A DNA stretch of 64,000 nucleotides, taken from an uncultured Gammaproteobacteria bacterium. Lineage in GTDB: Bacteria > Patescibacteriota > Patescibacteriia > Magasanikbacterales > UBA922. Shown piece by piece: positions 4,512 through 42,293 of this stretch. The stretch is from assembly GCA_964612105.1 (NCBI GenBank), contig CAZTEU010000003.1, forward strand, positions 67,050 through 131,049. The letters run 5' to 3'. The translations under genes and the position numbers were made by a program. A model generated the notes under the pieces. The model searched no databases, was not told where the DNA came from, and saw only the letters and a program-made list of their open reading frames with translations. Every line of letters begins with the position of its first letter. Position 1 is the first letter of the stretch.

Positions 4512-4520
4512 AGCTGTAAT

Positions 4521-5741: not shown

Positions 5742-6703
5742 ATATCTTCATATTTTATTTCTATATTTTCACGCATGGACTTTTCTGCATGCGCAGCTAT
5801 GTTTACGATACGCGTACCCAATAAACCATTTGGGTATTCAGTTTTCTCGCCTTTTAATACTTTTACAAAGTAATCCAACTCAACCATAAGAGGCATTTCT
5901 TCTAATACTTTTATTTTTTCTTTAGTTTTATCTTTTTCAATTACAATTTCTTGTAATATCAAATCTACATAAATAATTTTATCTGAAAAATATACTGACA
6001 CTTTTCGTACTTTTGGTGACATATTCCAACTAAGCCTAACCCTACCTTGCAAACCTGATGGATATTCCAAAATAGTTTCTACATCATCCTCAAAATTAGA
6101 ATCTTCACGCATCTTTTCTCCTTTTGCACTAATTATATTTGGAACTTCTTCAAATAAATAATCAATTATATCAAAACCATGTAAATCAGAGTATAAAACT
6201 CCGCAATCTCTTGTAACTTTTTCTGGTGTATCGCCTAATACACACTCTACGGAATACGGTTTTGTGCTACTATTTTTTATTATTTCTTTTAATTTTATAA
6301 TTGATGGATGAAATCTATAAATATGCCCTAAAAATAAAATACGCCTTTCTTTATTGGCTATTCCGTGTAATTCCAATCCATCTTCTGTAGATAATGCAAT
6401 TGGTTTTTCCAAAAAAACATTAGTAAATTTTAAACATTTTTTTACCAAATCTTTGTGGGTAGACGGAGGTGTTACTATGTCTACCGCATCTACATGTTTC
6501 AACAAATCATCTGTTAGTGTATCAAAAAATTTTACTCCGACATCTTGCGCTTTTTTTTTACCTTTTTCGCTATGAATCACCACACCCACGAACTCTATAC
6601 CCCCCTTATTGCTAATCTCTTGTAAATCTCTAAGATGATGTGTGCCAAAATGCCCAATTCCTACAAGAAGGATGCGTGGTTTATTTATTTTTGATAACTT
6701 CAT
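5738..6703 (-). CDS. Gfo/Idh/MocA-family NAD(P)-dependent oxidoreductase (sugar dehydrogenase).
   Basis: ILLVGIGHFGTHHL Rossmann motif, an EKP motif, and a C-terminal alpha/beta domain. It overlaps the upstream gene by 4 bp. Confidence 0.65.
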   Translation of the reverse strand: MKLSKINKPRILLVGIGHFGTHHLRDLQEISNKGGIEFVGVVIHSEKGKKKAQDVGVKFFDTLTDDLLKHVDAVDIVTPPSTHKDLVKKCLKFTNVFLEKPIALSTEDGLELHGIANKERRILFLGHIYRFHPSIIKLKEIIKNSSTKPYSVECVLGDTPEKVTRDCGVLYSDLHGFDIIDYLFEEVPNIISAKGEKMREDSNFEDDVETILEYPSGLQGRVRLSWNMSPKVRKVSVYFSDKIIYVDLILQEIVIEKDKTKEKIKVLEEMPLMVELDYFVKVLKGEKTEYPNGLLGTRIVNIAAHAEKSMRENIEIKYEDI

Positions 6704-7643
6704 AAATCATGTATTGGCTACGATCTTGCTGTCCATAATAAATACGAAGTAAAATTTCTGCCACAAATCCAATCATAAACAATAATACAGTTAGTATTAT
6801 TAACATTGTTCCTATAAGAGGCAAAGGGGTGTCACTAAAATTTCTTATATGCACAAACTTTAAAACTATAGCACTTACAAAAGAAGCTGTTCCCAAAAAA
6901 AGCGATACAATAGACAGCGTACCAAAAAACCTAAGCGGTTTTGCAAAATAATTCAATAAAAATTTAATACTTATTAAATCAAAAAATACAAAAATCATTT
7001 CACCTATAGAATGCTTTGATTTTCCATGTTTGCGCTCACTATGTAACACAGGAACTTCCGCAATACGAGCTCCCCTATCGTGCGCAAATACTGGCATAAA
7101 AATAAACGTTTCACCAAGAAGTTGTATACCTTCCACAAACTCTCTCCTATATCCTTTTAGGGAACAGCTAAAATCATGCAAATTCACTCCAGTAATACGC
7201 GCAACAAGCCAGTTGGAAATCCTAGAAAAAATCCTACGACTAATCGAGTCGTGCCTATCTTTTCTCCAACCCACCACTGTCCCATAACCTTCTTTTAGTT
7301 TTTCAAAAATCTTGGTTATATCCTCTGGAGACATTTGCAAATCACTGTCAATTGTTATAATAAAATCACCATTGGCAATTTGAAAACCAGCATCAACTGC
7401 TGCGTTTTGCCCAAAATTTCTTGAAAACAAGACTGCTTTTATTGGTCTTAATTCTGACAAAATTTTACGAGATCCATCTTTTGAGCCGTCATCAACTGCT
7501 ATAATTTCATAAGGCTCTCCTATACTATCCAAAACACGCACCAATCGACTGTGCAATTCTCGTAAATTGCCCTCTTCATTGTAAACTGGAAAAATTACAG
7601 AAATCATATATTCAAGAAATAAGTGTAAGATTAATCGGGTCAA
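6681..7643 (-). CDS. GT2 polyprenyl-phosphate sugar transferase (DPM-synthase/ArnC/GtrB-like) with C-terminal TM helices.
   Basis: VIFPVYNEEGNL...IIAVDDGSKDGS and an IDSDLQ motif, followed by two C-terminal hydrophobic helices. The true start is probably the internal Met at ~7607 (MISVIFPVYNEE). Confidence 0.75.
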   Translation of the reverse strand: MTRLILHLFLEYMISVIFPVYNEEGNLRELHSRLVRVLDSIGEPYEIIAVDDGSKDGSRKILSELRPIKAVLFSRNFGQNAAVDAGFQIANGDFIITIDSDLQMSPEDITKIFEKLKEGYGTVVGWRKDRHDSISRRIFSRISNWLVARITGVNLHDFSCSLKGYRREFVEGIQLLGETFIFMPVFAHDRGARIAEVPVLHSERKHGKSKHSIGEMIFVFFDLISIKFLLNYFAKPLRFFGTLSIVSLFLGTASFVSAIVLKFVHIRNFSDTPLPLIGTMLIILTVLLFMIGFVAEILLRIYYGQQDRSQYMIYEVIKNK

Positions 7644-8301
7644 TTTTGTCTATCTCATCTGGAGATAAAAATGGAGGTCTTTGTCTACCGTAAACAGCGT
7701 ATACATCGTGATCTTTAACAAATCCATTCATTAAGTCAGTTAGATAGTACTCCCCGTTTTTGTGCTTGACCATAGGATACTTAAAAATATCACTGCTAAC
7801 CACCATTATGCCTGCTGCACATATATCAGATGTTGGGTTTTCTGGTTTCTCAATTACTTCTGTTATTCTTCCTTCCATGTCAATTTCTGCTATACCTGAC
7901 TGTTTGGGGTCTGGGGATCTGCTACACAACCAGCTATATTCTTTGTTTATACACTCATCAATTTCTCCCTTGCTTGGTAGTTCATCTCCATATATGATTA
8001 TAAACCTTTCGCCTTCCTGAAATAAGTCTTTTGCTAGCATAAGTGCAGTAGCAGTGCCTGTAAGATTTTCTTGCCTAACATATCTTATTTTTTTACCCTG
8101 ATAGCAACCCCCAAGATGCGTTCTCATTTTGTCTTCCATATAGCCCACCACCATTATAACTGTGTCTACCTCGTTCGGAAGTGCATCAAAGATGTAATCA
8201 ATTATCGGTTGATTCCCTATTCTTAGTAATGATTTTGGTACGTTTTGTGTTAGTGGTAGCATTCTTTTTCCTATGCCTGCTGCTAAAATGATCGCTCTCA
8301 T
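7612..8301 (-). CDS. Sugar-1-phosphate nucleotidyltransferase (NTP_transferase, short form).
   Basis: MRAIILAAGIGKRMLPLTQNVPKSLL is the canonical G-x-G-x-R nucleotidyltransferase motif. Confidence 0.75.
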   Translation of the reverse strand: MRAIILAAGIGKRMLPLTQNVPKSLLRIGNQPIIDYIFDALPNEVDTVIMVVGYMEDKMRTHLGGCYQGKKIRYVRQENLTGTATALMLAKDLFQEGERFIIIYGDELPSKGEIDECINKEYSWLCSRSPDPKQSGIAEIDMEGRITEVIEKPENPTSDICAAGIMVVSSDIFKYPMVKHKNGEYYLTDLMNGFVKDHDVYAVYGRQRPPFLSPDEIDKIDPINLTLIS

Positions 8302-8379
8302 ACTAATAAGAATTCATAAAATATATGAACATATCCTACCACCAACATACTATTATGTCAATGTATTATTGGTGTTTGT

Positions 8380-10143
8380 TTAGGGAAGAAATTGATAAAT
8401 AAATATACCATTATTACTATAAACCTCACTCAAATTAGGTAAATCATTTAAAATATCTTCTTTTAATCTTCCTTCCGACAAAACATAGTCTATCTTAAAT
8501 ACTGATAATTCTGTGTAGAAATCTTGTTTTAGAAATTCTACATATTGTCCTGGCAACTCAGACAAACGCTTGTCTAGTTTGAGATCTGGGAAGCCTAAGG
8601 TTCTCTGCAACTGATATTGAAGAGAGCTAGATGCCTCATCCCTATTTTCTTCTATATATCTATTAATATCGGCCCCATCAACACCACGAATGCGGAGTAG
8701 TGACAAGTATCTGTGATAGAAATCATCAGGATTAGTTAATACTGATTGATTCTCAGTAGAATAATAAGAATTACAATGAGTAAATGCGGGTATTAAGTTG
8801 CTCCACCTATCCCCGCCCAAATCAGTGGAGAGTACTGCGCACTCTTTTTCAACACTGTTAAAGAAACTAAAGATCTCTGTGTGTGATTGCAATCTAGAAA
8901 ATTCGGAATATCTATTACTGTATGCACTCATTTGCTGATAAACAGCAAGAAAAGAGGAAGTGGCTAATACCAAGAGAACTATGGTTAGTGTTATTTTCTT
9001 AAACTTTTCATAATATATGTTACGCATTATTAGCATTATTGAAATATAAGAAAAAGGAATAGTATAGAACACATAGTGATAGTACCAAACCTCCACACCT
9101 GTAATTATCTGCTGATTATAAACAATAATACTACTTAACAACAACACTAATGAAACCCACCACCAGTATGGAAATGGTTTTTTTATTATTTTTGCATAAT
9201 ATCCATATATTGAGGAAAGCGTGAAAAACAACAACGAAGCGACAACAAATTTATTTATATGAGGGGTACGCGTAAAAAACATACCTATTCTCGCGGCTGC
9301 TTCAGGGTACCATTCTATTTTAGACGCTTGAATATTATTAATCCAATATCCTAATGAAAACATTATTCCCAAAAATAGGATCAATAGATAATTCAAAATT
9401 AGATTCCAATCTTTATTTAATAAAGCTCTTAAACTAAACAATCCCAAAACAACAAAAGCTAGTGTCCAACTAAAGACATAGCTTGCCATCATTATTGCAA
9501 GTGAAGCTCCAGATAGTAACACCCACCTCTTTTTCTTATTATGTAGGTTAATTCTATTTAAGCAATATAAAAAGAAAAAAAGTAAAATAGCTCCAGAGAC
9601 AGGATTTACTGGTCGTGTCCAAATTAAAAAACCTTGTGGAGACGAAACCCCCTTAATATATGAAATGATTGAACCGTAATCAACCAAATCAAAACCAAAA
9701 ACAATCAGTATTCCTGATGTCACTGCGAATATAACATTAAGAGCTCCTTCTCTTTTATTTTTTACTTTTACCAAATCATAAAAAAAGATATAAATAGCAA
9801 AAAAAAGCAATAGAGGGAAAATAAATTTACCTATTAAAATTGAGGTAACCAGTGATATACCAAAAAAAACCGGTATTGTGTACATCTTAAACAAAGTAGA
9901 AGGTAGTAGAGGAATTTTATCCTTATACTCAAAAAAAGGCATTGAAGCTACTTTTGTATGACCATCTAAAACTTCTTGCATAATAGCGATATACGCATCC
10001 TCGTTTGGTGTAGCAAGCATGTGAATCCCTCTATAATTATCACCAAGACTATATATGAAGAAAAATTGAGGAAGTATACAAACAAGACCAACAAAAAAAG
10101 ATGTAATTATCCCAACCTTATGCTTTTTTATATAACTACTCAT
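8380..10143 (-). CDS. Polytopic membrane protein, GT-C-like glycosyltransferase (GT39/PMT/ArnT-related) with a C-terminal soluble domain.
   Basis: About 11 predicted TM helices plus a roughly 180-aa hydrophilic C-terminus. The first loop carries an acidic E-D-A-Y motif (PNEDAYIAIMQE) that resembles the ArnT/PMT DE-x-x-Y motif. Confidence 0.45.
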   Translation of the reverse strand: MSSYIKKHKVGIITSFFVGLVCILPQFFFIYSLGDNYRGIHMLATPNEDAYIAIMQEVLDGHTKVASMPFFEYKDKIPLLPSTLFKMYTIPVFFGISLVTSILIGKFIFPLLLFFAIYIFFYDLVKVKNKREGALNVIFAVTSGILIVFGFDLVDYGSIISYIKGVSSPQGFLIWTRPVNPVSGAILLFFFLYCLNRINLHNKKKRWVLLSGASLAIMMASYVFSWTLAFVVLGLFSLRALLNKDWNLILNYLLILFLGIMFSLGYWINNIQASKIEWYPEAAARIGMFFTRTPHINKFVVASLLFFTLSSIYGYYAKIIKKPFPYWWWVSLVLLLSSIIVYNQQIITGVEVWYYHYVFYTIPFSYISIMLIMRNIYYEKFKKITLTIVLLVLATSSFLAVYQQMSAYSNRYSEFSRLQSHTEIFSFFNSVEKECAVLSTDLGGDRWSNLIPAFTHCNSYYSTENQSVLTNPDDFYHRYLSLLRIRGVDGADINRYIEENRDEASSSLQYQLQRTLGFPDLKLDKRLSELPGQYVEFLKQDFYTELSVFKIDYVLSEGRLKEDILNDLPNLSEVYSNNGIFIYQFLP

Positions 10144-10855
10144 TTACCTGTGTTTTAGTAACCAAAACGTGAAAACTATTAAAATATAGAGGTCTTAATA
10201 TAATATAATAAATGGGTAGTAGTATTTTTGAAAATAATTTATATTTTTTTGATATTTTATCAGCCCTAATATCTATCAGATTAAAACCACAACTTTTAAG
10301 AAGCTGCTTCACTTCTTTATATGTGTAGTAGTGCATTGTTAACAATTTCTGACGACCTGCTTCACCATCATCCTTTTGTTTTCCAAGCAATTTTAACACT
10401 CTCTCAGACCATGTTCGTGGCATCCAATTTATAAAATATGTGTGATAGTGATAATCATATACACCAAATCTATTATGAAAGCTTATGTATGCTTTTGCAT
10501 TTGGCATTAATACACGATAGATTTCTCTGCATACCATTTCTGGATTCTCCACATGTTCAGTAATTTCAGAAGCATTCGCAAAAGAAAATATATTATTTTC
10601 ATAAGGCAATTCTTCTGCTCTTCCCTCAACAACTGACACTTTTAGGTCTTCCTCAACTATGCGTTCGTTTATTTTTTCAATATAACTAGGATTTATTTCA
10701 ACTCCAAAAACCTCAAATCCCTTTTTGCTCATTTCACACAAAAAAACACCTTTTCCAGCCCCCACATCAAGTATTCTGTCTCCTGGAACAATAAATCCTG
10801 AACAATATTCGTAATGATTCATAAAAAAACTATGAAAGCCATTCTTTGAAATCAC
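10136..10855 (-). CDS. Class I SAM-dependent methyltransferase.
   Basis: Motif I ILDVGAGKGVF followed by an acidic residue at the end of strand 2. Confidence 0.65.
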   Translation of the reverse strand: MISKNGFHSFFMNHYEYCSGFIVPGDRILDVGAGKGVFLCEMSKKGFEVFGVEINPSYIEKINERIVEEDLKVSVVEGRAEELPYENNIFSFANASEITEHVENPEMVCREIYRVLMPNAKAYISFHNRFGVYDYHYHTYFINWMPRTWSERVLKLLGKQKDDGEAGRQKLLTMHYYTYKEVKQLLKSCGFNLIDIRADKISKKYKLFSKILLPIYYIILRPLYFNSFHVLVTKTQVNE

Positions 10856-11564
10856 CCAAGAATTGTTCTACGACTTGATCAGTTTTATAATGTTTCATCA
10901 TTTCTGGGAAAAACTTTGGAGGGACTGTAACTATATGAGCCCCAGCAACACCAGCATCACGAATATCAATTACACCTCTTATGCTACCTACAATTATCTC
11001 GCAATCTAATCCAGCATCGTCTATAGCCTTCCTTACTGTTTTAGTAACCTCAAAAGGATCGAAGTCACTCTTATCTACAACTCTATTTTCAAGCATCGCC
11101 TCTCTTTGGTCTTTCATTGTTTCTTGTATGCCCCCATCACTTATTCTCCCCCAAAATATGCTGACGTACTTTGCCCCAGCATGTGCAGCCATAATTGCCT
11201 GCATTGGTGTCATGCACGCTGTGCAATTTACAGATATACCCATTTCTTTAAGTCTTGCGATAGTTTCTAGCTCAGCCCACCCTACTTGAATCTTAATGCT
11301 TATTTGTGGATAATTAAATAACTTTACAAACTCTTGCGCCTGTCTCAATATTTCATCTTTATCAGTTGAAAATACTTCAACACTAAGATGGGCACCGGGT
11401 TTGTGCTGATTGATAAGTGCTATTATTTTTTTAATGTGTTCTTCAAAAGAGGATTTTGGCTCTTTTGAAAGCAAAGATGGATTAGTTGTAACACCGCTAG
11501 CAAAACCTTTTTTAAGACCAGGTTCAATATCAGACAGACTTGCAGAATCAATAAATATTTTCAT
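10830..11564 (-). CDS. tal: Transaldolase / fructose-6-phosphate aldolase family (type 3B).
   Basis: MKIFIDSA...GVTTNPSLL... plus the SIKIQV Schiff-base lysine region. Collinear with E. coli Fsa/TalC. Confidence 0.75.
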   Translation of the reverse strand: MKIFIDSASLSDIEPGLKKGFASGVTTNPSLLSKEPKSSFEEHIKKIIALINQHKPGAHLSVEVFSTDKDEILRQAQEFVKLFNYPQISIKIQVGWAELETIARLKEMGISVNCTACMTPMQAIMAAHAGAKYVSIFWGRISDGGIQETMKDQREAMLENRVVDKSDFDPFEVTKTVRKAIDDAGLDCEIIVGSIRGVIDIRDAGVAGAHIVTVPPKFFPEMMKHYKTDQVVEQFLGDFKEWLS

Positions 11565-11588
11565 ACACTTTTTAAAAAATATATGTTC

Positions 11589-11618
11589 ATAATATCAAAA
11601 TAAATGAGGTCTTGTCAA
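11589..11618 (-). promoter_or_regulatory. Internal sigma70-type promoter upstream of tal.
   Basis: Minus strand reads TTGACA, 18 nt, TATTAT, 24 nt, ATG. The -10 context TATTATGAAC recurs at 46205-46215. Confidence 0.45.
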
Positions 11619-11623
11619 AGACA

Positions 11624-12196
11624 CTAACCAATAATTCCAAATACCTCAAATAATGAGTAGACCCTATAATCACTATCTACTTGTTGATTATATTCAGTAT
11701 TTATTATAATTGATTTGCATCCAACAGCTTTTGCAGCACCTACATCTGATATTGTATCACCTAAAAAAAATGAAGATTTTATATCTATGTCCCACTTATC
11801 CATAGCTTCTTCAAGCATGCCTGGTTTTGGTTTTTTACAATTACACATGTCCTTTCTGCCATGAGGGCAGACAAATATATCATCGAATGGAATTTTTCTA
11901 ACCTCTGACATTATGAGTTCATGATCCTCTTTTGAAAGAAGGCCGTATGAAATGTCTGGTTGATTTGTAACTAATATACATAGAAACCCCCTTTTTTTTA
12001 AATCTTTTACAAAGTCTAACACACCTTCTTTGGGTTTAAACTCCGTGTAAGAATATGGGGCAGTGTAGCGAACCTTTTTTTTAAGCACAAAAAAATCGTC
12101 TCCACGATCTATTACGTCATTTACTATACCATCTCTATCAAGAAATATGGCTGGTTTTTTTATACTCATGTATTCTTTCTTTAAGTCCAAATACAA
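11624..12196 (-). CDS. gmhB: D-glycero-D-manno-heptose 1,7-bisphosphate phosphatase (HAD-IIIA).
   Basis: FLDRDGIVN HAD motif I and a C-x-H...C-x-C-(K)KP-x-PGM zinc/substrate loop (CPHGRKDMCNCKKPKPGM). The likely start is the internal Met MSIKKPAIFLDRDG. Confidence 0.75.
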   Translation of the reverse strand: MYLDLKKEYMSIKKPAIFLDRDGIVNDVIDRGDDFFVLKKKVRYTAPYSYTEFKPKEGVLDFVKDLKKRGFLCILVTNQPDISYGLLSKEDHELIMSEVRKIPFDDIFVCPHGRKDMCNCKKPKPGMLEEAMDKWDIDIKSSFFLGDTISDVGAAKAVGCKSIIINTEYNQQVDSDYRVYSLFEVFGIIG

Positions 12197-12779
12197 CTAA
12201 GTGATTTAGCACAACATGCATACCCTCTACTAGTGGAGTTGAGTTAGCAGGAACAACCACACCCACATCAACCATATTCTTCATTGGACCCCCATCAAAA
12301 CCAGAGAACCCTATTGTCTTTCCTCCACGATCCTTTATATATTGAAGCCCTTTAAGCAAGTTTTGTGACCACTGACCAGCAACATCATTTCCACTTCCTC
12401 CATGAACACTGAAAGCAATTCCCACACTCCCTTTTTCGTAATATGTAGCTAGTTGGTTTGTATAAATATTTTCCCAACCCCAATCATTAACCAAAGCGCT
12501 TACAAGTGGTATATTATCAACAAGAGCAATGGCTTTTATTCCGCGATCTTCTGGTTTTTCACAGATTGTTTTTGCTAAATCAGCAGCTAGGTGAGTTGCG
12601 GTCGATGCTGACCCCCCATTTCCCATTATAAATACGTAATTGTTGTTTTTCCATGCTTCAAATAAAACATCTACAGCTTCATCTAATTGTCTACAATAAT
12701 CCGCTGCTATCATGGATGTAACCCCTGAAACCTTCATTAAAAATGAGTTTGCAAATGATTCATTTTGTGATTGAAACAT
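12138..12779 (-). CDS. gmhA: Phosphoheptose (sedoheptulose-7-phosphate) isomerase, SIS domain.
   Basis: IMGNGGSASTATHLAADL is the GmhA-type SIS motif. Adjacent to gmhB. Confidence 0.75.
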   Translation of the reverse strand: MFQSQNESFANSFLMKVSGVTSMIAADYCRQLDEAVDVLFEAWKNNNYVFIMGNGGSASTATHLAADLAKTICEKPEDRGIKAIALVDNIPLVSALVNDWGWENIYTNQLATYYEKGSVGIAFSVHGGSGNDVAGQWSQNLLKGLQYIKDRGGKTIGFSGFDGGPMKNMVDVGVVVPANSTPLVEGMHVVLNHLVVFGLKERIHEYKKTSHIS

Positions 12780-12780
12780 A

Positions 12781-13350
12781 CTAATTATATTTTACTAAAG
12801 ATTGTATATTATCATGTCTTAACCTATCTCTCCCAGACATTAATTCCATTTCCACAACGAAAGAAATACCTAGAATATCAATTCCATTCCTTTTTATCAA
12901 TTTTTCAACAGCAGACATTGTTCCGCCGGTTGCGAGAATATCATCTACTATAACAACTTTTTTATCTTCATATAAATAGTCGGTACCTATCTCAATTACA
13001 TTGGAAGCGTACTCATAACTATACTCTTCTTTATCTGTAGGAGGTGGTAGCTTTCCTTTCTTCCTAACCATTGCAACACCCGCACCAAGCTCGTATGCTA
13101 AAGCTGATGCAATAACAAAACCTCTCGCCTCAACACCAACAATTATATCAATTGGCTGTCCACGATAAGGCTCAGCCATTTTCTTTATCATCTCAGAAAA
13201 AGCAACTGAATCAGCCAATAAGGGTGATATATCATAACAGTCTATACCAGGTCTGGGCCAATCCTCTATTATTTTAATTTTTGACTTTAAATCACTTACC
13301 ATAATATATATAGGTAGAAACACTCTAGCAAAATATCTATCTAGTGTCAA
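12781..13350 (-). CDS. apt: Adenine phosphoribosyltransferase.
   Basis: PRPP-binding motif VVIVDDILATGGT and the IKIIEDWPRPGI N-terminus. The likely start is the internal Met near 13303. Confidence 0.8.
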   Translation of the reverse strand: MTLDRYFARVFLPIYIMVSDLKSKIKIIEDWPRPGIDCYDISPLLADSVAFSEMIKKMAEPYRGQPIDIIVGVEARGFVIASALAYELGAGVAMVRKKGKLPPPTDKEEYSYEYASNVIEIGTDYLYEDKKVVIVDDILATGGTMSAVEKLIKRNGIDILGISFVVEMELMSGRDRLRHDNIQSLVKYN

Positions 13351-13377
13351 ACCTCAATTACATGTATTTTTTACCTA

Positions 13378-14679: not shown

Positions 14680-14706
14680 ATATTTTATTTAATTATTTCT
14701 AGTGTG

Positions 14707-19371: not shown

Positions 19372-19376
19372 ATATA

Positions 19377-20312: not shown

Positions 20313-20414
20313 AATATATCTATCATTTCAGCTTATTTTCGTGTAAAATAAGCAATTTCTTAACATTCGACACAGCAATTATAACAATAAGACACGATAT
20401 GTCAACACTGTCGA

Positions 20415-21149: not shown

Positions 21150-21160
21150 ATTCTATTAAT

Positions 21161-22648: not shown

Positions 22649-22652
22649 ATAT

Positions 22653-23789: not shown

Positions 23790-23790
23790 A

Positions 23791-26323: not shown

Positions 26324-26324
26324 A

Positions 26325-28473: not shown

Positions 28474-28476
28474 AGT

Positions 28477-29811: not shown

Positions 29812-29814
29812 TAT

Positions 29815-30513: not shown

Positions 30514-30520
30514 ATGCTTT

Positions 30521-31558: not shown

Positions 31559-31559
31559 A

Positions 31560-32777: not shown

Positions 32778-32782
32778 ATGAG

Positions 32783-34668: not shown

Positions 34669-35660
34669 ATACCAAACAGAATATTTTTTATTTCCTTCAT
34701 GAATCCACCGTATAGATCAGAGGATACAATTTTTACAATATTACTTTTTTTCAGTTCGTGGTTAGCAATTCCCACATCACTCATAATAACAGCAGTACCA
34801 GCGACACTCGCCTCCATTGCAGTTAGACCATAACCCTCACTCAAACTTGGTATTAGCAAGCAGTCTGAAGTTTTTATGTAACTTATTGGGTCATTTGTCC
34901 ACCCTTCAAATTTAATATTATCCTCCAAACCAAGTCTACGCACCTTTTCCTTAATCTTTTTCTTTTCAGATCCATCCCCTACCACTAAAAGTAGGATTTT
35001 GTTATTTTTTTCAACAATTGTCCCAAATAAATCGATCAATAAATTAATGTTTTTTATTTTCTCAACTCTTCCAAGCGCTAGGAATATTTTACTGTATCCA
35101 ACATATTTTTTTCGAAGATTAATTCCTACTTTATGATTTCTTATTTTGTCGACATCAACATGTATTGGTTTGAGATTAATTTTCTTATCTTCTGTACCCA
35201 TTTCTACAAGACTCTTCTTTATCCTTTGACTAACAACACGTAGCTTATCAGCCCTTCTTACTATGCTTTTTCCTATTCTGTATCTTACTGGGTACTTATT
35301 TTTATAATAACTAGAATCAAAGAAATCACCGTGTAGTTGCACCTCTAAATGTCTTTTCGTAAGTTTTTTAATAATATACCCAGCAAGTCCAGTAAAAAAT
35401 GGATCCTGTGTTGTAATATTATCTATATTATTGCATTTTATAATACTATTTCCATATCTTAAAAGAGAGAAAAATTGCAAGACTTTAATTCCTCCAGTTG
35501 ATTGCACATGAACAGTACTGCTTAGATCAACTTGAGTTTTTTTTCTGTTGGGTATCAGAATATATAGTTCATCAGTTTTTCCGTACTCAACCATCCGCTT
35601 AGCAACACCAGAGTCCTTATCTAATATCTTATTGTCCAAGCTAATCATTAGAATTTTCAT
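34665..35660 (-). CDS. Glycosyltransferase family 4.
   Basis: PSLSEGYGLTAMEASVAGTAVIMSDVG. 4-bp overlaps on both sides. Confidence 0.65.
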   Translation of the reverse strand: MKILMISLDNKILDKDSGVAKRMVEYGKTDELYILIPNRKKTQVDLSSTVHVQSTGGIKVLQFFSLLRYGNSIIKCNNIDNITTQDPFFTGLAGYIIKKLTKRHLEVQLHGDFFDSSYYKNKYPVRYRIGKSIVRRADKLRVVSQRIKKSLVEMGTEDKKINLKPIHVDVDKIRNHKVGINLRKKYVGYSKIFLALGRVEKIKNINLLIDLFGTIVEKNNKILLLVVGDGSEKKKIKEKVRRLGLEDNIKFEGWTNDPISYIKTSDCLLIPSLSEGYGLTAMEASVAGTAVIMSDVGIANHELKKSNIVKIVSSDLYGGFMKEIKNILFGI

Positions 35661-36772
35661 ATTCCAGAAATTATTCTAAGTGTATCTTTATAAGCGTCTC
35701 TAAATGAGTAATTGTAGTTTACTTTATTTAGATTCATTTTTATTTTTTCATACTCCTCAGAGTCAAATATTGAGTTAATTGCTTGTGTCATATCGGTACC
35801 ATCATGAGGATTGAAAGTAATTATTTTATCCTTTATCCAGTCATAACCAATTTCTTCTGAAGAAACAAATGGGGTGCCAATTGAAATACAGTCCAACATT
35901 GTGTTTGGGCTTATATCTGTCAAGCTTGGAAAGATCGCTCCGTGACACGTAGAAAAGATGTTCCACAGCTCACTTCTTGAAACTTTGTCCTTAAAAACAA
36001 TGTTACCAATATTTTTAGACTTTACTATTTCCTCTGCTTTACTTCTTACATCTCCATTTCCAATTACCACAAGTCTAAATCCTTCGCTATTCGAATTAAT
36101 AAAGGATTCTATAAGTCGTAATACATTGTTTTTTTCTATTGCCCGCCCCGCAAAGATTAGGTCATTATTTCTTTTACCGTACTTTACGTCACTTGGAACA
36201 TCTGGAGTTGGGTTTTGTACATATGACACTTTTTCTGTTGAGAATTTATAGTACTCAGCAAATATTTCACTTTGAAATTTTGTTGTAAAAATCAAACCTG
36301 TTGCTCTAGAAAAAACAAAACGTATAATGTTGAAACGTATCTTGTCTTTTTTATGTATGCCTTTTTTGTAATAGTCACGAAGTGATACAGCTTCTCCAGT
36401 TATACTTAAATATCTTTCCCATATAAAATCTCCACCAATTCTTATAAAGAATTTTTTTCTTCTTATAAGATTTACAACTGTAGATGGAATCCCAGCACTC
36501 ATATGATCAAAAGAATATATAACATCAGCATCTTTTGTCATTGTGAATAGAGCTTTAAAATACCTAAAATAATTACTTATTGTATTAGTGCGTTTTATTC
36601 TCTTAATTGGGAAATTGAAGTTTTCATCTCCGTTGTAAGTGGTAACATCTGAATAAGTAATAACTGAAACAGAGTGACCTTCGTTTAAAAACTCTTTTGC
36701 TATGTTTGGAACATAAGTTGCAGGACCTCCAATTTCCGGTGCAAAAATTCCAGTTGCGATTACAATTTTCAT
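35657..36772 (-). CDS. Glycosyltransferase family 4.
   Basis: N-terminal IATGIFAPEIGGPATY and a GT-B fold. Confidence 0.65.
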   Translation of the reverse strand: MKIVIATGIFAPEIGGPATYVPNIAKEFLNEGHSVSVITYSDVTTYNGDENFNFPIKRIKRTNTISNYFRYFKALFTMTKDADVIYSFDHMSAGIPSTVVNLIRRKKFFIRIGGDFIWERYLSITGEAVSLRDYYKKGIHKKDKIRFNIIRFVFSRATGLIFTTKFQSEIFAEYYKFSTEKVSYVQNPTPDVPSDVKYGKRNNDLIFAGRAIEKNNVLRLIESFINSNSEGFRLVVIGNGDVRSKAEEIVKSKNIGNIVFKDKVSRSELWNIFSTCHGAIFPSLTDISPNTMLDCISIGTPFVSSEEIGYDWIKDKIITFNPHDGTDMTQAINSIFDSEEYEKIKMNLNKVNYNYSFRDAYKDTLRIISGI

Positions 36773-37890
36773 AGTTCATTAAATATTTTATTCATTTGTG
36801 TTGCCACACCACCCCAAGAATATTTGTCTTCTATAACTTGTTTTCCTTTTTTAATTATTTTATCTCTTATATCCCCATTCTCCAGCAGAACTCCAATCTT
36901 TTCTGCAATATCTTTAGGATTCTCAATCTCACAAAATAATCCAGTCTCATTATCTTCTAGAAAATCTGGAATTCCACCAACCTTTGTTGCAACAACAGGA
37001 ACACCTGAGGCCATAGATTCTAAAAACGCACTGCCTAGACCTTCTGAAAGACTGGGACGACAGAAGGCTCCTGCAAGTGATAAATATTTTGGTACATCTT
37101 CGTATGCAATTGATCCTAAAAAATGAACTCTGTTATTAATTCCTAGATTACTACTCACTTTTATTAATTCATTTTTTAACTGACCATCTCCAATAATAAC
37201 TAAATGCACGTCTTTTGGTAAGAATTGCATTGACTCAACCAAACTTCTTACTCCATTCTTTTTTACAAGTCTGGAAACTGTTATTATTAATTTATTTTTA
37301 TCTGGTAAATTTAATTTTCCTCTTAATTGTTCAGTCTCTTCAGAACTAATATTAAAATCATCCAAGACTACTCCGTTCGGTACAATTCTTATTTCGGATT
37401 GTGCACCCATTTTTTTTGCCCAATTTCCAAGATGATTACTTATTGCTTGCACCTTATCAGCTTTGCTAAATATTTGTTTAAACCATGGCCAAATAAACAA
37501 TGCGCGCAGATAAATGTGACCTAGACTGTCCCCTTCTTGAATTGTTAATAAGAATTTGGTTTTAGGATATTTCTTCTTGAAACGCAATCCTGCAAGCCCT
37601 CCATGACTGGCCATTACAGACCAGACTATTTTTGCATCTGGCGCTATCTTCTTTGCCTGCTTATATCCAGAAAAGATTAGCTTAAATTTGTCTAAGAATG
37701 AGCCGTTTCCCACTCTATAGATATGAATATTATCATGTTTTTCATATGCAGGCAATTTAGAATCTAGACGTGCTGTAAACACAAAAAAATCATACTGTGG
37801 AAGTCGTGTCATAACTTGTTCCGCTGCAATTTCTGCACCTCCTATAAAAGGAGAGAATGCTGTCGTAAATACAATTATTTTCTGTTTCAT
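36769..37890 (-). CDS. Glycosyltransferase family 4.
   Basis: GGAEIAAEQ N-terminus and PSLSEGLGSAFLESMASGVPVVATKVGGIPD. Confidence 0.7.
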   Translation of the reverse strand: MKQKIIVFTTAFSPFIGGAEIAAEQVMTRLPQYDFFVFTARLDSKLPAYEKHDNIHIYRVGNGSFLDKFKLIFSGYKQAKKIAPDAKIVWSVMASHGGLAGLRFKKKYPKTKFLLTIQEGDSLGHIYLRALFIWPWFKQIFSKADKVQAISNHLGNWAKKMGAQSEIRIVPNGVVLDDFNISSEETEQLRGKLNLPDKNKLIITVSRLVKKNGVRSLVESMQFLPKDVHLVIIGDGQLKNELIKVSSNLGINNRVHFLGSIAYEDVPKYLSLAGAFCRPSLSEGLGSAFLESMASGVPVVATKVGGIPDFLEDNETGLFCEIENPKDIAEKIGVLLENGDIRDKIIKKGKQVIEDKYSWGGVATQMNKIFNEL

Positions 37891-39548
37891 AGTAAATCGA
37901 TTGTATATATTAGAAATGTTGTATTTCCTTCTAAATCTTTTACAGCTTCTGGTGTAATCTCTTCACTAAGCAATGATTCTTCAATATATTTACCCACCTC
38001 TGTAGTAATGCTGTTTCCTTCGCGGGGTGCGTACTCTGTTGCTTTTATGAAATATACACGTTCAAATACTAGATCATTTATAATCTTAACAAACTCTGTA
38101 GTAGATATAACAGGAATATTGTGGTAAAACCTGCGACGTTTAAAAGGCCATAGTTCAGCAAACCAGTCTATATCATCATCATAAATAATCATGTGTTTAA
38201 AAACCTTTTCATTTTCCTGATCGATTTCTTCTGGAACATACTTGCTTAATCTATCGCTTTTCTCTTTTATTACAGTGTATGCATCTATAACAGGAAGAAC
38301 TGAATTCTCTTTGATGATTTCGTCTAGTTTTGTATCGAGTTGGTGCACTCCCTTGTTCTCACTTCTAGCATCAGATATTGTCCAACCAGCATATCCTCCA
38401 CTACCAACTACCACATGGCTCTGGACTAATGAAAAGAGTAAATAAACTACAAATAGTAGTACTACTGGGTACTTATATATATTTAGAATTTTTTTGTTTT
38501 TTAATAACGATGCTATCAAAACACCGACTGGAATAGCTAGAAATGGTGTATAAAGATCTAGATGATATGTCCCAGCACCAGTAAGAGAGAAAAGTATAGT
38601 AAGATACACCAGACCAAATAAAATCATCCGGGACACATTTTTCCTCTGCTTAAAAAGATAAGCAATCCCAAGGAATGATACAATTAAATAAGGATAAAGC
38701 GTTGTCTTACCTAAACCAACTATTATTGATACTATGCTTGAAAGAGAAAAACTGGCTCCGCTTGATTGCCACGGAGAATCTAGCCCAAATAAACGAGAAA
38801 ACTGATAGTCAAAATGTCCTGTTGTTTTATACATTAATATGTTGTAGACAATTACTGGTGAAAGAACCAATAGAGTAACTATTGCGGAATAATATAATTT
38901 CTTGTTTTTAAAAATACTTCTCTTTACTATTGCAAAACATGTAATATAAGTTGGAATAAGGAACATTGAGTTGTATTTCGCCAAAAGCGCAAGACCTAGA
39001 AATAGTCCAAACTTCCACCAATACTTTTCCTCTTTAAGAAATCTTAGAAAGTACAAAATACTCAACGAAATAAATAGTACAACGATAGATTCCATATATG
39101 CTGTTCTACCTGTCCATATAAATAAACTATTGAGCCCTAAAAACATTGAGCTTAGTAATGCAGCTTTTTTGTTATAATTTTCCTCAACAATTTTATAAAC
39201 AACAATAATAGTAAGTAGAGAAGCAATAATATACGGTAGTTTTGCAAAAAATATGCTTTCGTGTAATGAAAGAAATACGTGTTGAATAAAGAAAACAAGT
39301 GGTGGGTGGTCATGAAATGATAAATTTGACCACCATGGATAATTATCAAGCCAATTTAATGGTGTGGTCTGCTTCGTAGAAAACATGAAGTCTATATATC
39401 CAATTCCTCTTATTGTGTAATGCGAATCATCCCCAAGTAGGTCCACATAAGATACTTTATACAACAAGAAAAATGCGCTGATAAGTAATATAGCTACTAG
39501 GAATTTTTGTGACTTAACAAACGCTGTAAGACGTTTTGCGAAATGCAT
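37887..39548 (-). CDS. GT-C polytopic membrane glycosyltransferase, GT39/PMT/ArnT-like.
   Basis: Multi-TM N-terminal region plus a soluble C-terminal domain. The first loop carries GDDSHYTIRGIG, followed by HDHPPL. This is a PMT-type DE...HPPL signature. Confidence 0.55.
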   Translation of the reverse strand: MHFAKRLTAFVKSQKFLVAILLISAFFLLYKVSYVDLLGDDSHYTIRGIGYIDFMFSTKQTTPLNWLDNYPWWSNLSFHDHPPLVFFIQHVFLSLHESIFFAKLPYIIASLLTIIVVYKIVEENYNKKAALLSSMFLGLNSLFIWTGRTAYMESIVVLFISLSILYFLRFLKEEKYWWKFGLFLGLALLAKYNSMFLIPTYITCFAIVKRSIFKNKKLYYSAIVTLLVLSPVIVYNILMYKTTGHFDYQFSRLFGLDSPWQSSGASFSLSSIVSIIVGLGKTTLYPYLIVSFLGIAYLFKQRKNVSRMILFGLVYLTILFSLTGAGTYHLDLYTPFLAIPVGVLIASLLKNKKILNIYKYPVVLLFVVYLLFSLVQSHVVVGSGGYAGWTISDARSENKGVHQLDTKLDEIIKENSVLPVIDAYTVIKEKSDRLSKYVPEEIDQENEKVFKHMIIYDDDIDWFAELWPFKRRRFYHNIPVISTTEFVKIINDLVFERVYFIKATEYAPREGNSITTEVGKYIEESLLSEEITPEAVKDLEGNTTFLIYTIDLL

Positions 39549-39550
39549 AC

Positions 39551-40495
39551 CTATAGACGGGTTCTAAAGTTTTCAACTGTTTTTTCTAATCCTGTTTGTA
39601 ATTTGGTTGTAGGTTGCCAATTCAATATTTTTTTTGCAAGTGATATGTCTGGACGCCGTCTTTTTGGATCATCTTCCGGAAGCTCCTTATGTGTAAGCTT
39701 ACTTTTTGACTTTGTAATCCTGATAATTTCTTCAGCTAGTTGCTTTATTGTATATTCTTCAGGATTTCCAAGATTAACTGGTCCTTGGACTTCAGCAGAA
39801 GTGTTCATCATTTTAATTATTGCGTCTACTAAATCATCTACAAAACAAAAGCTACGAGTTTGAGAACCGTCTCCATAAATTGTAATATCCTCATTATTTA
39901 AAGCCTGTACTATAAAATTTGAAACAACACGTCCGTCATGAAAAGCCATTCTGGGTCCGTATGTATTGAAAATACGTATAACCTTAATCTCCATCCCATG
40001 CATCCTATAATAATCAAAACATAAGGTTTCTGAACAGCGCTTCCCCTCATCATAACATGCGCGCGGTCCTGTTGTACTCACACTTCCTCGATAATCTTCT
40101 GTTTGCGGATGCACTTCCGGGTCTCCATACACTTCAGAAGTTGATGCTTGTAATATTCTTGCATTATGCTTATGAGCCAAACCAAGCATATTTATCATAC
40201 CTATAGTATTTGCTTTAATTGTACGCACTGGATTCATCTGATAATGAACAGGACTTGCAGGACAAGCTAAATTATATATCTGGTCGATTTTCTCTTCAAT
40301 AAAAAGAGGGTCAATAATATCATGGTCAAGAAGTACAAAATTTTCATTATCCAAAAGATGAGCTATATTTTCCTTCAAACCTGTAAAAAAATTATCTACA
40401 CAAATAACACGATTTCCCTCTTCTAGAAGACGCTCAGAAAGGTGTGAGCCTATAAAGCCTGACCCACCAGTAATTACTATTGTTTTCATACTCAA
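39551..40495 (-). CDS. uxs: UDP-glucuronate decarboxylase (UDP-xylose synthase).
   Basis: [38 protein letters not shown] and YDEGKR. Near-collinear with UXS/ArnA-decarboxylase-domain proteins. Confidence 0.8.
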
Positions 40496-40540
40496 TTTTT
40501 AACTAAAATATCAATAATTTACCCAATTATTGTCATAAAT

Positions 40541-40569
40541 ATAATACAGAAAAATGACCACTTTGTCAA
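40541..40569 (-). promoter_or_regulatory. Sigma70-type promoter upstream of uxs.
   Basis: Minus strand reads TTGACA, 17 nt, TATTAT, about 50-nt leader, ATG. Near-consensus hexamers. Confidence 0.5.
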
Positions 40570-40577
40570 TGAAGTAA

Positions 40578-42293
40578 CTAGAAGAGATATATATTGAAAG
40601 CGTCTTTCCCTGTAGAGTCTTTTATTATCTCAATGTTGTGAGAAATCGACTCTATTCTCTCCTTAATTTTATTATGCGTATCATCTGATGAGTACTTGTA
40701 TTGGAAATCAAACTGTTCAATCTCCACTTTATTATTTTCATAATTCTCTGGACGTACAGCTGAGATGTAAATGAATGATTCAACGCCCTGATTTCTAAAG
40801 TATTCATCTAGCTTATTTCCAGTTATATTATAAAATTTTCTGTCTGTCATAATAGGCCACCCATCATAAATACTGTGCCTGTCTAACCCCCAAAGTCTAG
40901 CTAGTGTATTAATACGGTGATCGTATATAATCATCAGGTTTTTTGGTGTATATCCTGTATCCTTCTTGCTTTCAACTCGTTCTTTTTGTAATTTTGTCAA
41001 AAACTCATAGTTTGGTTGCCCAAAGAATGCTGGAACACTTTCCTTAAGGGTATCACCTATATAATTATTGAGCTGATTAAATCCATAATTTTGTGTTTCT
41101 ACTACTGTTCCAGCATAGGCTACATACTTACTTCCATATCTTTGTGTTAAGTGAAAACTATTAATAGAGAAAAGTAGTTCAACAAATATAAATAAAAATA
41201 GAAGAAATATACCAAGCTTTTTTTTCTTAGATACTATATATTCAAAAAACAGAGCAACTATAAATACTAACCAAGGAAGTGCAACGGTAACGAACCTATA
41301 TGTTGATCCTATTGGCAGAATAAATATATAAGTAGCTAAGAGTGATGAAAGAAGAAATATTGCAAACTTATTATTATTTTTTATTGAAAAGTAGCCCAGC
41401 AGTGAAGCAGAGACTACGGAAAGGAAGTTAAAAATCTGGCTGTTTGCATAATATAATACTGTAAAAAATCTTTTCGCTCGATCCATTACTGAGCCTACAT
41501 TATCTCTACCCAACCTAACTTTCCAGTTTGGAGTTTCTTGGTTTAATAATGCAGAAAATTGGAAGTCAAAATGTCCTATTAATTTGTATAATTGAATATT
41601 ATAAATCAATATTGGAAGAGTTATTGCAAAACTAATAAGAGAGCCTTTCCAGAACCATTTAATATTGTGGAATTTCTTTTTATAGACAAATGAGTATAGT
41701 AGCAATACAGGCACAATTATTCCTACCGTGTACTTAGTTAGTATCCCCAAACCAAGACTGGTCCCCCACCCAAACCAATACCATTTGTTTTTATTATCTA
41801 GTGCCTGTATCCAAAACCAAAGTATTAACAAAATAAAGAACAGTGCTGTACCATCTTGTATTCCCACTCTAGATACCCACACATGATACGACTGGATTGC
41901 TATAATAGACCCTGCAATTAGACCAAACCTGCTAGAGTGTAGTTTCTTACCTATTGCATAAACAAGATAGACAGATGCTATACCAGTGAGTACAGCTGGT
42001 AATCTAACTGCAAAAATAGTCTCACCAATTGCCTTTATACTGACATGTTCTATAAGAAAGAAAAGAATTGGATGATCATGATATGAGAGTCTCCCCCACC
42101 AAGGCACTGTTGACAACCACTCCCAAGGTGTGGTTTGATGAGTAGCCGCAACATAATCCATTAGTTCGACAGATCTTATTGCATATAGCACTTCGTCTGT
42201 ATAGCTATCATGAAAAGTTATATTAGCAAAGCGCAATATAGATGCGATAATCAATATTGAAAATAATATATATAGCGTGGTTCTTTTTCTCAT
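40578..42293 (-). CDS. GT-C polytopic membrane glycosyltransferase, ArnT/PMT-like.
   Basis: The first loop carries TDEVLYAIRSVELMD (compare ArnT DEARYAEISREM), then HDHPIL. About 13 TM helices plus a roughly 200-aa C-terminal domain. Confidence 0.6.
   Translation of the reverse strand: MRKRTTLYILFSILIIASILRFANITFHDSYTDEVLYAIRSVELMDYVAATHQTTPWEWLSTVPWWGRLSYHDHPILFFLIEHVSIKAIGETIFAVRLPAVLTGIASVYLVYAIGKKLHSSRFGLIAGSIIAIQSYHVWVSRVGIQDGTALFFILLILWFWIQALDNKNKWYWFGWGTSLGLGILTKYTVGIIVPVLLLYSFVYKKKFHNIKWFWKGSLISFAITLPILIYNIQLYKLIGHFDFQFSALLNQETPNWKVRLGRDNVGSVMDRAKRFFTVLYYANSQIFNFLSVVSASLLGYFSIKNNNKFAIFLLSSLLATYIFILPIGSTYRFVTVALPWLVFIVALFFEYIVSKKKKLGIFLLFLFIFVELLFSINSFHLTQRYGSKYVAYAGTVVETQNYGFNQLNNYIGDTLKESVPAFFGQPNYEFLTKLQKERVESKKDTGYTPKNLMIIYDHRINTLARLWGLDRHSIYDGWPIMTDRKFYNITGNKLDEYFRNQGVESFIYISAVRPENYENNKVEIEQFDFQYKYSSDDTHNKIKERIESISHNIEIIKDSTGKDAFNIYLF

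Follow-up and report, generated by a model that had tools for sequence, protein, structure and literature searches.

The window analysed here, a stretch of 64,000 nucleotides from contig CAZTEU010000003.1 of an uncultured bacterium of the Patescibacteriota (Magasanikbacterales), encodes six polytopic membrane glycosyltransferases of the GT-C type (designated A to F) and four GT2 glycosyltransferases (g1 to g4) within one 36-kb stretch. Outside the cell of this ultra-small member of the candidate phyla radiation (CPR), the six GT-C enzymes most likely attach sugars delivered on lipid carriers, and we consider it probable that, together with the four GT2 enzymes, they make up several 'multi-component transmembrane glycosylation' modules within a single surface-glycan island. 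The original prediction had described these genes as one operon-like array, and this was borne out: all ten open reading frames (ORFs) are present in the ORF list of the window at exactly the following coordinates, and all of them lie on the minus strand.

6681-7643, minus strand: GT2 g1, ArnC/GtrB-type with a C-terminal transmembrane (TM) hairpin; PF00535 E 1e-31
8380-10143, minus strand: GT-C A, 587 aa, from a Patescibacteria GT-C family without a Pfam or NCBIfam model
19377-20312, minus strand: GT2 g2, ArnC/GtrB-type with a C-terminal TM hairpin; PF00535 E 3e-33
21161-22648, minus strand: GT-C B, 495 aa, with four additional N-terminal TM helices preceding the GT-C core; PMT_2 E 1.2e-7
26325-27059, minus strand: GT2 g3, short catalytic domain without TM helices; PF00535 E 5e-20
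27049-28473, minus strand: GT-C C, 474 aa, overlapping the end of g3; PMT_2 E 1.1e-13
28477-29811, minus strand: GT-C D, 444 aa, directly downstream of g4; PMT_2 E 2e-12, PMT E 2.6e-6
29815-30513, minus strand: GT2 g4, short, DPM1/AglJ/PpgS-like, without TM helices; PF00535 E 5e-40
37887-39548, minus strand: GT-C E, GT39-like, 553 aa; PMT_2 E 1.7e-27, PMT E 1.9e-10
40578-42293, minus strand: GT-C F, GT39-like, 571 aa, with a soluble C-terminal domain of ~190 aa; PMT_2 E 3.1e-22

Between positions 1015 and 42293 there are 39 co-directional ORFs with 17 overlaps and no gap larger than 123 bp, which makes 'operon-like array' a fair description, and the series of minus-strand genes is nearly uninterrupted from 52266 down to 1015. 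It should be underlined that these are longest ORFs, and some of their starts are probably a few codons too long. A public contig has g1 as 308 aa, not 320 aa, the true start probably lying 12 codons downstream, and the public gene call for B is 489 aa instead of 495 aa. Likewise, the overlaps of 23-74 nt with TTG or GTG starts (6681-6703, 7612-7643, 12138-12196 and 15815-15888) are probably over-extended start codons and not real overlaps; for three genes with such overlaps the public gene calls are 9-12 codons shorter.

All six membrane proteins are GT-C enzymes, as each gave a significant match, five by hidden Markov model (HMM) and A by fold. Judged against the Pfam gathering scores, B, C, D, E and F all exceeded that of PMT_2 (PF13231), and D (27.6 bits versus 22.7) and E also matched PMT (PF02366), for which A, B, C and F gave no match at E≤0.01. 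Homologues of E carry the NCBI name 'glycosyltransferase family 39 protein', and a crude hydropathy scan predicts 7-14 TM helices per protein. As judged by the NCBIfam equivalog model for the lipid IV(A) L-Ara4N transferase, none of the six is an ArnT orthologue, the best scores being 31.0 bits (F) and 21.7 bits (D) compared to a cut-off of 567. The original label 'six paralogous PMT/ArnT-like' enzymes is thus accurate in part. E and F are clearly related (BLASTP, 26% identity over the full length, E 6e-58), but the similarity of B to D, C to F and D to F is confined to the PMT_2 core (BLASTP E 3e-6 to 2.5e-4), and A had no BLASTP match to any of the other five. 'PMT/ArnT-like' in turn does not suit A by sequence, since A belongs to a separate family without a model.

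Protein A left Pfam, NCBIfam and a family-profile search of the PDB sequences all blank, and was identified only by fold comparison together with profile-profile comparison. A reading of A as a Wzy/EpsG-type polymerase or an acyltransferase, raised by sub-threshold EpsG and Acyl_transf_3 matches of one homologue, was rejected because every strong structural match was to a classical GT-C enzyme. The structural relatives are without exception outward-acting GT-C enzymes: AftA, AftB and AftD are in the top matches of A and B, ArnT is also among the matches, and the profile of the E/F family matches the Pmt and ArnT structures. The Aft matches raise the alternative that some or all of the GT-C enzymes build a glycan backbone extracellularly from lipid-phosphate sugars, like the mycobacterial Emb/Aft arabinosyltransferases. 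The grouping of the six genes with donor-synthesis genes also resembles the mycobacterial arabinogalactan region, where several GT-C arabinosyltransferase genes are clustered with such genes. We nevertheless find this very unlikely, as neither a UbiA-type phosphoribosyltransferase gene nor DprE-like genes were present among the ORFs scanned, and a GT4-rich layout with Wzy_C proteins (see below) is typical of cytoplasmic repeat-unit assembly.

The motifs on which the original prediction was built (WFDEG, LGDDSHY, YTDEVLY, NEDAY, FHDHPPL, YHDHPIL and THPPGY) are all present, and family alignments show which of the residues are conserved. Among 41 sequences of the E/F family, D40 in the first loop is invariant, as are A3, R47, D53, H79-D80 (of HDHPPL) and K191; D40 falls on the 'FDE' motif of Pmt, in an N-terminal stretch where the profile alignment is weak. 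F has its DE motif in the first loop, followed by HDHPIL. Family A shows at least 90% conservation of E48 and invariant Y51, K74, R177 and H356, but no conservation of the neighbouring D49. The B family has invariant E166 (in W-E-Y), R150 and H198-P-P-G201, the loop with E166 coming after the four extra N-terminal helices. The E/F, A and B families thus each have a conserved acid in the loop of the GT-C core that is predicted to be the first one outside the membrane; C has a DE motif at residues 31-32 in its first loop, and in D the acidic motif (D35/D40) is present. With regard to topology, a crude hydropathy analysis with a positive-inside count places the N-terminus of A, E and F inside and the first loop outside, and the E166 loop of B on the side poor in Lys and Arg. 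The predicted outward orientation of the acidic loops is consistent with these estimates for A, E, F and B, and the estimates for C and D came out ambiguous. As far as the sequence shows, neither of the two results that would have told against the original prediction, a lack of GT-C matches and a cytoplasmic placement of the acidic motifs, was obtained.

The original assignment of the four GT2 enzymes to the DPM-synthase/ArnC type, two of them with C-terminal TM helices, is supported for g1 and g2, with g3 and g4 as candidates: the best solved relatives of the four are ArnC, GtrB and DPMS, and g1 and g2 each have 2-3 predicted C-terminal TM helices. These two are 43% identical and align with positions 8-314 of the 316 in the NCBIfam ArnC model (E 1e-58 for g1 and 1e-62 for g2). 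Since their scores (199 bits for g1, 212 bits for g2) are below the equivalog cut-off of 529 bits, they are members of the ArnC/GtrB/PgfS family other than ArnC itself. PgfS was among the NCBIfam matches of both, and the PDB matches of g2 were ArnC 9hwj over the full length (E 5.7e-56), GtrB (2.6e-30) and DPMS (2.8e-23). g4 matched AglJ (E 2e-37), PpgS (E 3e-20), DPMS 5mlz (E 1.2e-17) and ArnC (E 2.5e-11). The closest solved relatives of g3 are GtrB 5ekp (E 5e-12) and DPMS (1e-6), its NCBIfam matches being generic; it is a candidate lipid-phosphate sugar synthase and the weakest assignment of the four.

That the GT-C and GT2 enzymes are 'paired' is true of two cases only, since g3 and C as well as g4 and D are directly adjacent. 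g1 and g2 each adjoin a nucleotidyltransferase gene, and each lies one gene away from a GT-C gene. The g4-D pair is adjacent also in a related locus, L085, with 65% and 47% identity, respectively.

The sugars to be transferred would come from pathways encoded between and around these genes, as follows (assignments by Pfam).

1015-8301, minus strand: second donor cassette and end of the array; nucleotidyltransferase (7612-8301), g1, GFO/IDH/MocA, FAD oxidoreductase, UDP-Glc/GDP-Man dehydrogenase, epimerase and GT4
10830-19371, minus strand: nucleoside diphosphate (NDP)-heptose-type cassette; FSA/transaldolase (TAL), GmhB-like HAD, GmhA-like SIS, phosphoribosyltransferase, UDP-Glc dehydrogenase, epimerase, GFO/IDH/MocA, SDR, HddA-like GHMP kinase and nucleotidyltransferase
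20415-26323, minus strand: modifying genes between the GT-C modules; two methyltransferases, one GT4 and an AsnB-type amidotransferase
30521-37890, minus strand: cytoplasmic glycan assembly; five GT4 enzymes, GDP-mannose 4,6-dehydratase (32783-33754) and a GDP-sugar reductase-like SDR (33751-34668)
39551-40495, minus strand: UDP-glucuronate decarboxylase/UDP-xylose synthase (UXS)-like SDR between E and F

In the heptose-type cassette, GmhA, HddA, GmhB and HddC types are all present and clustered, each scoring under its equivalog cut-off. The NCBIfam E-values were 6e-27 for GmhA, 1e-31 for GmhB, 4e-40 for HddA (the best match of that protein), 2e-39 for FSA and 9e-21 for HddC (not the best match of that protein). 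The 30521-37890 segment gave GDP_Man_Dehyd at E 1.8e-140 and GT4 matches from 1e-11 to 3e-43, and the protein at 39551-40495 matched the ArnA C-terminal domain (2e-34) and UDP-xylose synthase (1.4e-32), both under cut-off. The array holds two UDP-glucose/GDP-mannose dehydrogenases, three methyltransferases and one AsnB-type amidotransferase, and across the window there are eleven GT4 enzymes.

The family and fold assignments, the order of the genes and the conservation of the cassettes are direct results of the analysis; as to the donors, their flipping, the orientation of the enzymes and the acceptor, we infer the following scheme. The local pathways would make NDP-sugars of a heptose type, a GDP-6-deoxyhexose (Gmd plus reductase) and a UDP-uronate or UDP-pentose (the dehydrogenases plus the UXS-like protein), with modifications added by the methyltransferases and the AsnB-type amidotransferase. 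At the cytoplasmic face, each GT2 enzyme would load one sugar onto polyprenyl phosphate; that the donors of the GT-C enzymes would be polyprenyl-phosphate-linked is suggested by the ArnC/GtrB-type GT2 neighbourhood and by fusions to GtrA (see below). The lipid-linked monosaccharide would then be flipped by a flippase encoded outside the window, and at the outer face a GT-C enzyme would pass the sugar to its acceptor by means of the conserved acidic residue in the outward loop. The acceptor would most likely be a glycan chain, built by the GT4 enzymes and polymerised or ligated by the Wzy_C proteins; a glycan is favoured on account of the eleven GT4 genes, the two Wzy_C genes and an ABC exporter gene in the vicinity. 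This chain might be carried by a Ser/Thr-rich surface protein, perhaps attached by a Wzy_C protein with a TPR domain (Wzy_C-TPR), with the GT-C enzymes adding side-chain decorations after export. Systems of a GT-A enzyme, a flippase and a GT-C enzyme (the latter often PMT_2 or without a Pfam model) decorate wall polymers of Gram-positive bacteria such as teichoic acids and wall polysaccharides (PMC8035078), and the same scheme acts on Ser/Thr-rich proteins in streptococci (PMC12041528) and in the addition of pentofuranose side chains (PMC11127046).

Family A is large, and its members are nearly all ~560-620 aa long. Among 1.84 billion representative proteins, an E-value limit of 1e-3 gave 2659 clusters, one of 1e-10 gave 1987 and one of 1e-30 gave 934. 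Two divergent members, P0032 (735 aa; L001 306-2513) and P0279 (750 aa), have an N-terminal GtrA/DPMS-TM domain (E 6e-16 and 1e-18), i.e. a putative lipid-sugar flippase fused to a transferase. A GT2 gene of the g1-g4 types was found within 10 kb of the family-A gene in 61 of 78 Patescibacteria loci, and at least three of the four heptose-cassette markers (SIS, HAD, GHMP kinase and TAL) in 14 of the 78. A polyprenyl-phosphate heptose-type donor may be envisaged. A further-reaching proposal, which we put forward as speculative and on balance unlikely, is that A represents a Patescibacteria-specific GT-C family that has an ArnC-like GT2 enzyme and an NDP-heptose-type pathway as conserved partners and uses a polyprenyl-phosphate-linked heptose or heptose-derived donor, and that the island builds a branched, methylated, amidated and possibly sulfated glycan on an S-layer-like surface protein of an ultra-small episymbiont. 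We know of no description of a lipid-linked monosaccharide donor of the heptose class, and a literature search for heptose together with GT-C and undecaprenyl gave nothing relevant. If true, the proposal would provide the first concrete handle on the CPR cell envelope.

Two further genes were seen near family A in related loci. A second protein without Pfam assignment, of ~590-626 aa, is encoded downstream of the FAD oxidoreductase gene (L002 16852-18702, in this case after the dehydrogenase gene next to it; L003 17212-19092; L004 18974-20752); in L003 and L007 it is a BLAST-detectable family-A paralogue, and the window has no such copy. A B12-binding radical SAM gene on the opposite strand, absent from the window, directly follows the family-A gene in L003 (11787-13319) and L004 (11758-13275).

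The named homologues all come from metagenome-assembled genomes (MAGs) of Patescibacteria, namely Magasanik-, Peregrini-, Giovannoni-, Taylor-, Falkow-, Kaiser-, Uhr- and Yanofskybacteria, among others. The closest named relatives are MAGs of Candidatus Magasanikbacteria and Peregrinibacteria, and the best match in species-representative genomes had 47% identity. The gene order around family A is well conserved. In a comparison set consisting of a Magasanikbacteria MAG, a Peregrinibacteria MAG and a JGI contig (L002-L004), all three keep the order ArnC-like GT2, nucleotidyltransferase, GHMP kinase with the rest of the cassette, SIS, HAD, TAL, methyltransferase, family A, nucleotidyltransferase, ArnC-like GT2, GFO and FAD oxidoreductase. 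The order of the 1015-8301 cassette also recurs in L002, L003 and L086, and the order GT2 – AsnB – (methyltransferase) – family A in several among the 40 related loci listed. Further along the array, the UXS-like gene 39551-40495 is kept beside E in L084 and L085 (56-67% identity). L085, in which E is 37% identical, has a backbone of about 15 genes in conserved order (surface protein, Wzy_C-TPR, GT4, UXS, E, four GT4, g4, D, AsnB, methyltransferase and GT4) and is without F, C/g3 and the Gmd module. Another locus, L087, keeps an ECF sigma factor, a DUF5667 protein, the surface protein, Wzy_C-TPR and Gmd. As L085 and L087 retain different portions, the window is best described as a conserved backbone with inserted extra modules.

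Such a structure invites the explanation that the locus is a patchwork 'glycosylation island' of independent and often exchanged modules with several unrelated products (a wall polymer, a lipid-anchored glycan, a glycoprotein), the six GT-C genes having come together by accretion. The related genomes retain differing module subsets and orders, the six GT-C proteins are highly divergent from one another, and most related 20-kb loci have just one or two BLAST-detectable GT-C genes. Weak evidence of the same kind is a promoter-like site (11/12 matches) in the gap before 39551-40495. On the other hand, the tight co-directional packing, with its overlaps over 41 kb, and the backbone shared with L085 in conserved order make this explanation decidedly unlikely in our view, and we retain the interpretation as several lipid-dependent modules within one island.

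As transcription runs, the array is preceded by five genes, ECF sigma, DUF5667, surface protein, TPR and Wzy_C-TPR, and a second Wzy_C-like protein is encoded further away.

43501-45516, minus strand: Wzy_C membrane protein fused to TPR; Wzy_C (PF04932) E 9e-20, 71.4 bits versus a gathering score of 31.7
45509-46186, minus strand: separate TPR protein beside the Wzy_C-TPR gene
46330-50079, minus strand: surface protein, 1249 aa, secreted or anchored, Ser/Thr-enriched, with a Ser-rich linker at residues ~236-256; candidate acceptor
50391-51692, minus strand: DUF5667 membrane protein (Pfam), head of the surface-protein block
51685-52266, minus strand: ECF sigma factor (Pfam), head of the surface-protein block
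60513-61988, minus strand: second Wzy_C-like polytopic protein, 491 aa, ~10-12 TM helices; E 3.4e-7, 30.6 bits, just below the gathering score of 31.7

The original prediction had placed a 'Ser/Thr-rich giant surface protein immediately downstream'. The protein at 46330-50079 is indeed Ser/Thr-rich (22% Ser+Thr compared to 12% in the other proteins) and has an N-terminal hydrophobic segment, but it is large rather than giant and lies upstream as the genes are transcribed. Pfam gave no hit on it, no tandem repeats were found in its region, and the GC content is 40-41% across the gene compared to 33-37% over the array. A promoter consensus scan of 40-53 kb found promoter-like sites no more common than in shuffled sequence, and a terminator scan of the same segment gave nothing convincing between the surface-protein gene and the Wzy_C block. 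Residues 33-378 of the Wzy_C-TPR protein match the WaaL-type structure 7tpg_B (E 7e-7), no NCBIfam model matches the protein, and a metagenome scan with it returned one locus. The Wzy_C-like gene at 60513-61988, which comes after two GT4 genes, could encode a polymerase counterpart of the Wzy_C-TPR protein.

Surface-protein homologues are found in matching position in L085 and L087 (26-27% identity), and ECF sigma and DUF5667 are kept in L087 at 50% and 39% identity. The expected co-occurrence of GT-C genes with the surface protein was seen in the window and in L085 but not in L087, where no GT-C gene was detectable in the 10 kb downstream of the surface-protein block. In all three genomes, the constant neighbour adjoining the surface-protein gene is Wzy_C-TPR; the link between the surface protein and the GT-C enzymes is thus real but indirect. 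These observations bear on what we regard as a serious rival for some of the GT-C enzymes, namely that they are direct protein O-glycosyltransferases (Pmt- or PgfM/PgtC-like) transferring single sugars onto Ser/Thr of secreted proteins, the 1249-aa surface protein among them. In favour of it, both E and F are GT39-like with matches to Pmt structures, the surface protein is Ser/Thr-enriched with a Ser-rich linker and is encoded together with GT-C genes in two of the loci, and the Pgf cluster of S. mutans likewise holds a GT-A enzyme, GT-C enzymes and adhesin substrates together (PMC12041528). Against this, the constant partner of the surface protein is not a GT-C gene, the GT4 and Wzy_C genes indicate an oligo- or polysaccharide acceptor, and the PMT_2 GT-C enzymes of Firmicutes chiefly decorate polymers (PMC8035078). 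On these grounds we hold direct protein glycosylation to be rather unlikely, and a glycan to be the favoured acceptor.

Other genes around the surface-protein block are mentioned as separate observations. Divergent from the ECF sigma operon is a gene on the plus strand for a DUF11 membrane-anchored protein (53065-54918), found in the same position in L087 (26% identity), and the 800-bp divergent intergenic region contains a small HTH_17 (excisionase-like) gene (52697-53014, plus strand). Inside the island, 56254-58230 (minus strand) encodes 658 aa with a GHL15 putative glycoside hydrolase domain (E 6e-30) and FG-GAP repeats, and may be a glycan-trimming or remodelling enzyme. An ORF running off the right end of the window (62194-64000, minus strand) encodes Cys-rich repeats, C-x-D-x-N-x-C-T-x-D-x-C-D-x-K-T-G-x-C (Pfam Dicty_CTDC, E 6e-30), and after them a domain of ~190 aa at the C-terminus. 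The GC content of this ORF is 57%, compared to 33-36% in most of the window, which suggests foreign origin or extreme codon bias. That this GC-rich block at 62-64 kb is rRNA was excluded, as it had no Rfam hit and encodes the Cys-rich repeat protein; an Rfam scan of the whole window gave zero hits.

The same-strand array goes on past the left edge of the window, so that the whole surface-glycan island exceeds 70 kb, of which the window covers most. The continuation is seen in L086 (11264-21206), directly past that edge, where the first gene is the partial ORF 1-1014 of the window. It comprises same-strand genes for a Capsule_synth-like protein, CysD/CysN-like proteins of the PAPS pathway, a HisF/HisH-like pair, NeuB, a SIS protein and an ABC exporter, and on the opposite strand a sulfotransferase gene. 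These genes hint at sulfated and nonulosonic-acid-containing glycans and a possible exporter of lipid-linked glycan.

Several results weigh against the proposed lipid-dependent scheme. Among the ORFs of at least 150 aa in the window, the searches detected neither a flippase of the GtrA, Wzx or MATE kind nor a priming phosphoglycosyltransferase, and the packed array has no space for a GtrA-sized ORF. As g3 and g4 have no TM helices, and the matches of g3 are generic, these two could be ordinary Leloir enzymes; soluble GacI-type synthases that require a membrane partner do exist (PMC8035078), and no such partner was identified for g3 or g4. The topology estimate is ambiguous for C and D, even though their N-terminal tails are dense in Lys and Arg. 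All sugar-pathway matches are below the NCBIfam equivalog cut-offs, and a GT2 gene directly adjoining the family-A gene is rare (5 of 78 loci). The GT-C-free L087 block also belongs here, and since the island is modular, with L084 and L085 retaining only parts of it, the six GT-C enzymes need not serve one product. With regard to the flippase, a free-standing GtrA gene is present in the homologous locus L004.

The window alone encodes 23 glycosyltransferase-type proteins, i.e. the 6 GT-C, 4 GT2, 11 GT4 and 2 Wzy_C proteins. Patescibacteria are thought to live attached to host cells, and surface chemistry is for that reason central to their biology. The structure of the CPR envelope 'remains unclear', and one whole Parcubacterium genome is reported to have 20 glycosyltransferases (PMC5220378); by comparison with this number, a large share of a small genome is devoted to surface glycans. 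In the papers that our literature search covered, on GT39, GT-C and glycosylation loci of CPR/Patescibacteria, neither family A nor an array of GT-C genes was described. About 2,000-2,600 clusters of ~590-aa proteins, so far annotated as 'hypothetical', are now identified as GT-C glycosyltransferases linked to a conserved sugar cassette, which would improve the annotation of Patescibacteria and could seed a new CAZy or Pfam family; in practical terms, the analysis supplies enzyme pairs that can be tested. As for the mechanism, it is not new but of a known kind, and clusters of several GT-C genes with donor-synthesis genes are already known from elsewhere, as in the mycobacterial region mentioned above.

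The closest parallel in layout is provided by the Gtr-type three-component systems (GtrA/GtrB/GtrC of Shigella and Salmonella phages, CsbB-GtcA-YfhO, CsdAB/CD/EF of Lactococcus and GacI-GacK-GacL; PMC8035078). These likewise combine a GT2 enzyme making a C55-P-sugar with a polytopic GT-C enzyme that has an acidic outer-loop motif, often encoded side by side in glycan loci. Several such systems may occur in one genome, as in B. subtilis and L. lactis with three pairs each (PMC8035078). The window differs in that six GT-C and four GT2 genes are collected in a single 36-kb stretch, that it contains no GtrA or Wzx gene, that its donors appear to include unusual sugars (heptose-type and uronate-derived), and that the host belongs to a Patescibacteria lineage, the envelope composition of which is unclear (PMC5220378).

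The ArnC/ArnT pathway, which adds aminoarabinose to lipid A, resembles the window in the full-length alignment of g1 and g2 with ArnC, the decarboxylase similar to UXS and the ArnA C-terminal domain, the UDP-glucose dehydrogenases and the structural matches to ArnT. In contrast to that pathway, the proteins of the window score far under the equivalog cut-offs (199-212 versus 529 and 21-31 versus 567 bits), and no ArnB aminotransferase, ArnA formyltransferase or ArnD was present among the window ORFs scanned. The lipid A genes lpxC and kdsA were missing in one CPR genome checked (PMC5220378).

Similarity is also evident to the protein-glycosylating pairs Pmt (GT39)/Ppm1, PgfS/PgfM1 and GtrB/PgtC2 (PMC12041528), since E and F are GT39-like with an Asp on the Pmt DE motif (albeit in a weakly aligned stretch) and g1 and g2 match PgfS. 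In the Pgf cluster, too, the enzyme genes have the gene of a Ser/Thr-rich surface protein next to them (PMC12041528). However, the enzymes of the window have no MIR domains; PgfM and PgtC2 are of the YfhO type, whereas the GT-C proteins described here are PMT_2-type or unmodelled; and the linkage of the surface protein to GT-C genes is not constant across genomes.

The pentofuranose three-component systems with a GT136 GT-C enzyme (Kelly et al. 2024, PMC11127046) share the concept of a lipid-phosphate monosaccharide that is made in the cytoplasm, flipped, and added by a GT-C enzyme after polymerisation, and there, too, a glycan locus was the source of a new GT-C family. Those systems employ a polyprenyl phosphoribose synthase and a MATE flippase, whereas the synthases in the window are GT2 enzymes and no MATE protein was present among the ORFs scanned.

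Finally, the Wzy_C family includes O-antigen ligases (WaaL) and O-oligosaccharyltransferases of the PglL/PilO type. The protein at 43501-45516 resembles these in its Wzy_C and 7tpg_B matches and in having a candidate glycoprotein as its neighbour in three genomes, and differs from them in its C-terminal TPR domain and the absence of an NCBIfam match. It may act as a ligase, a polymerase or an O-oligosaccharyltransferase.

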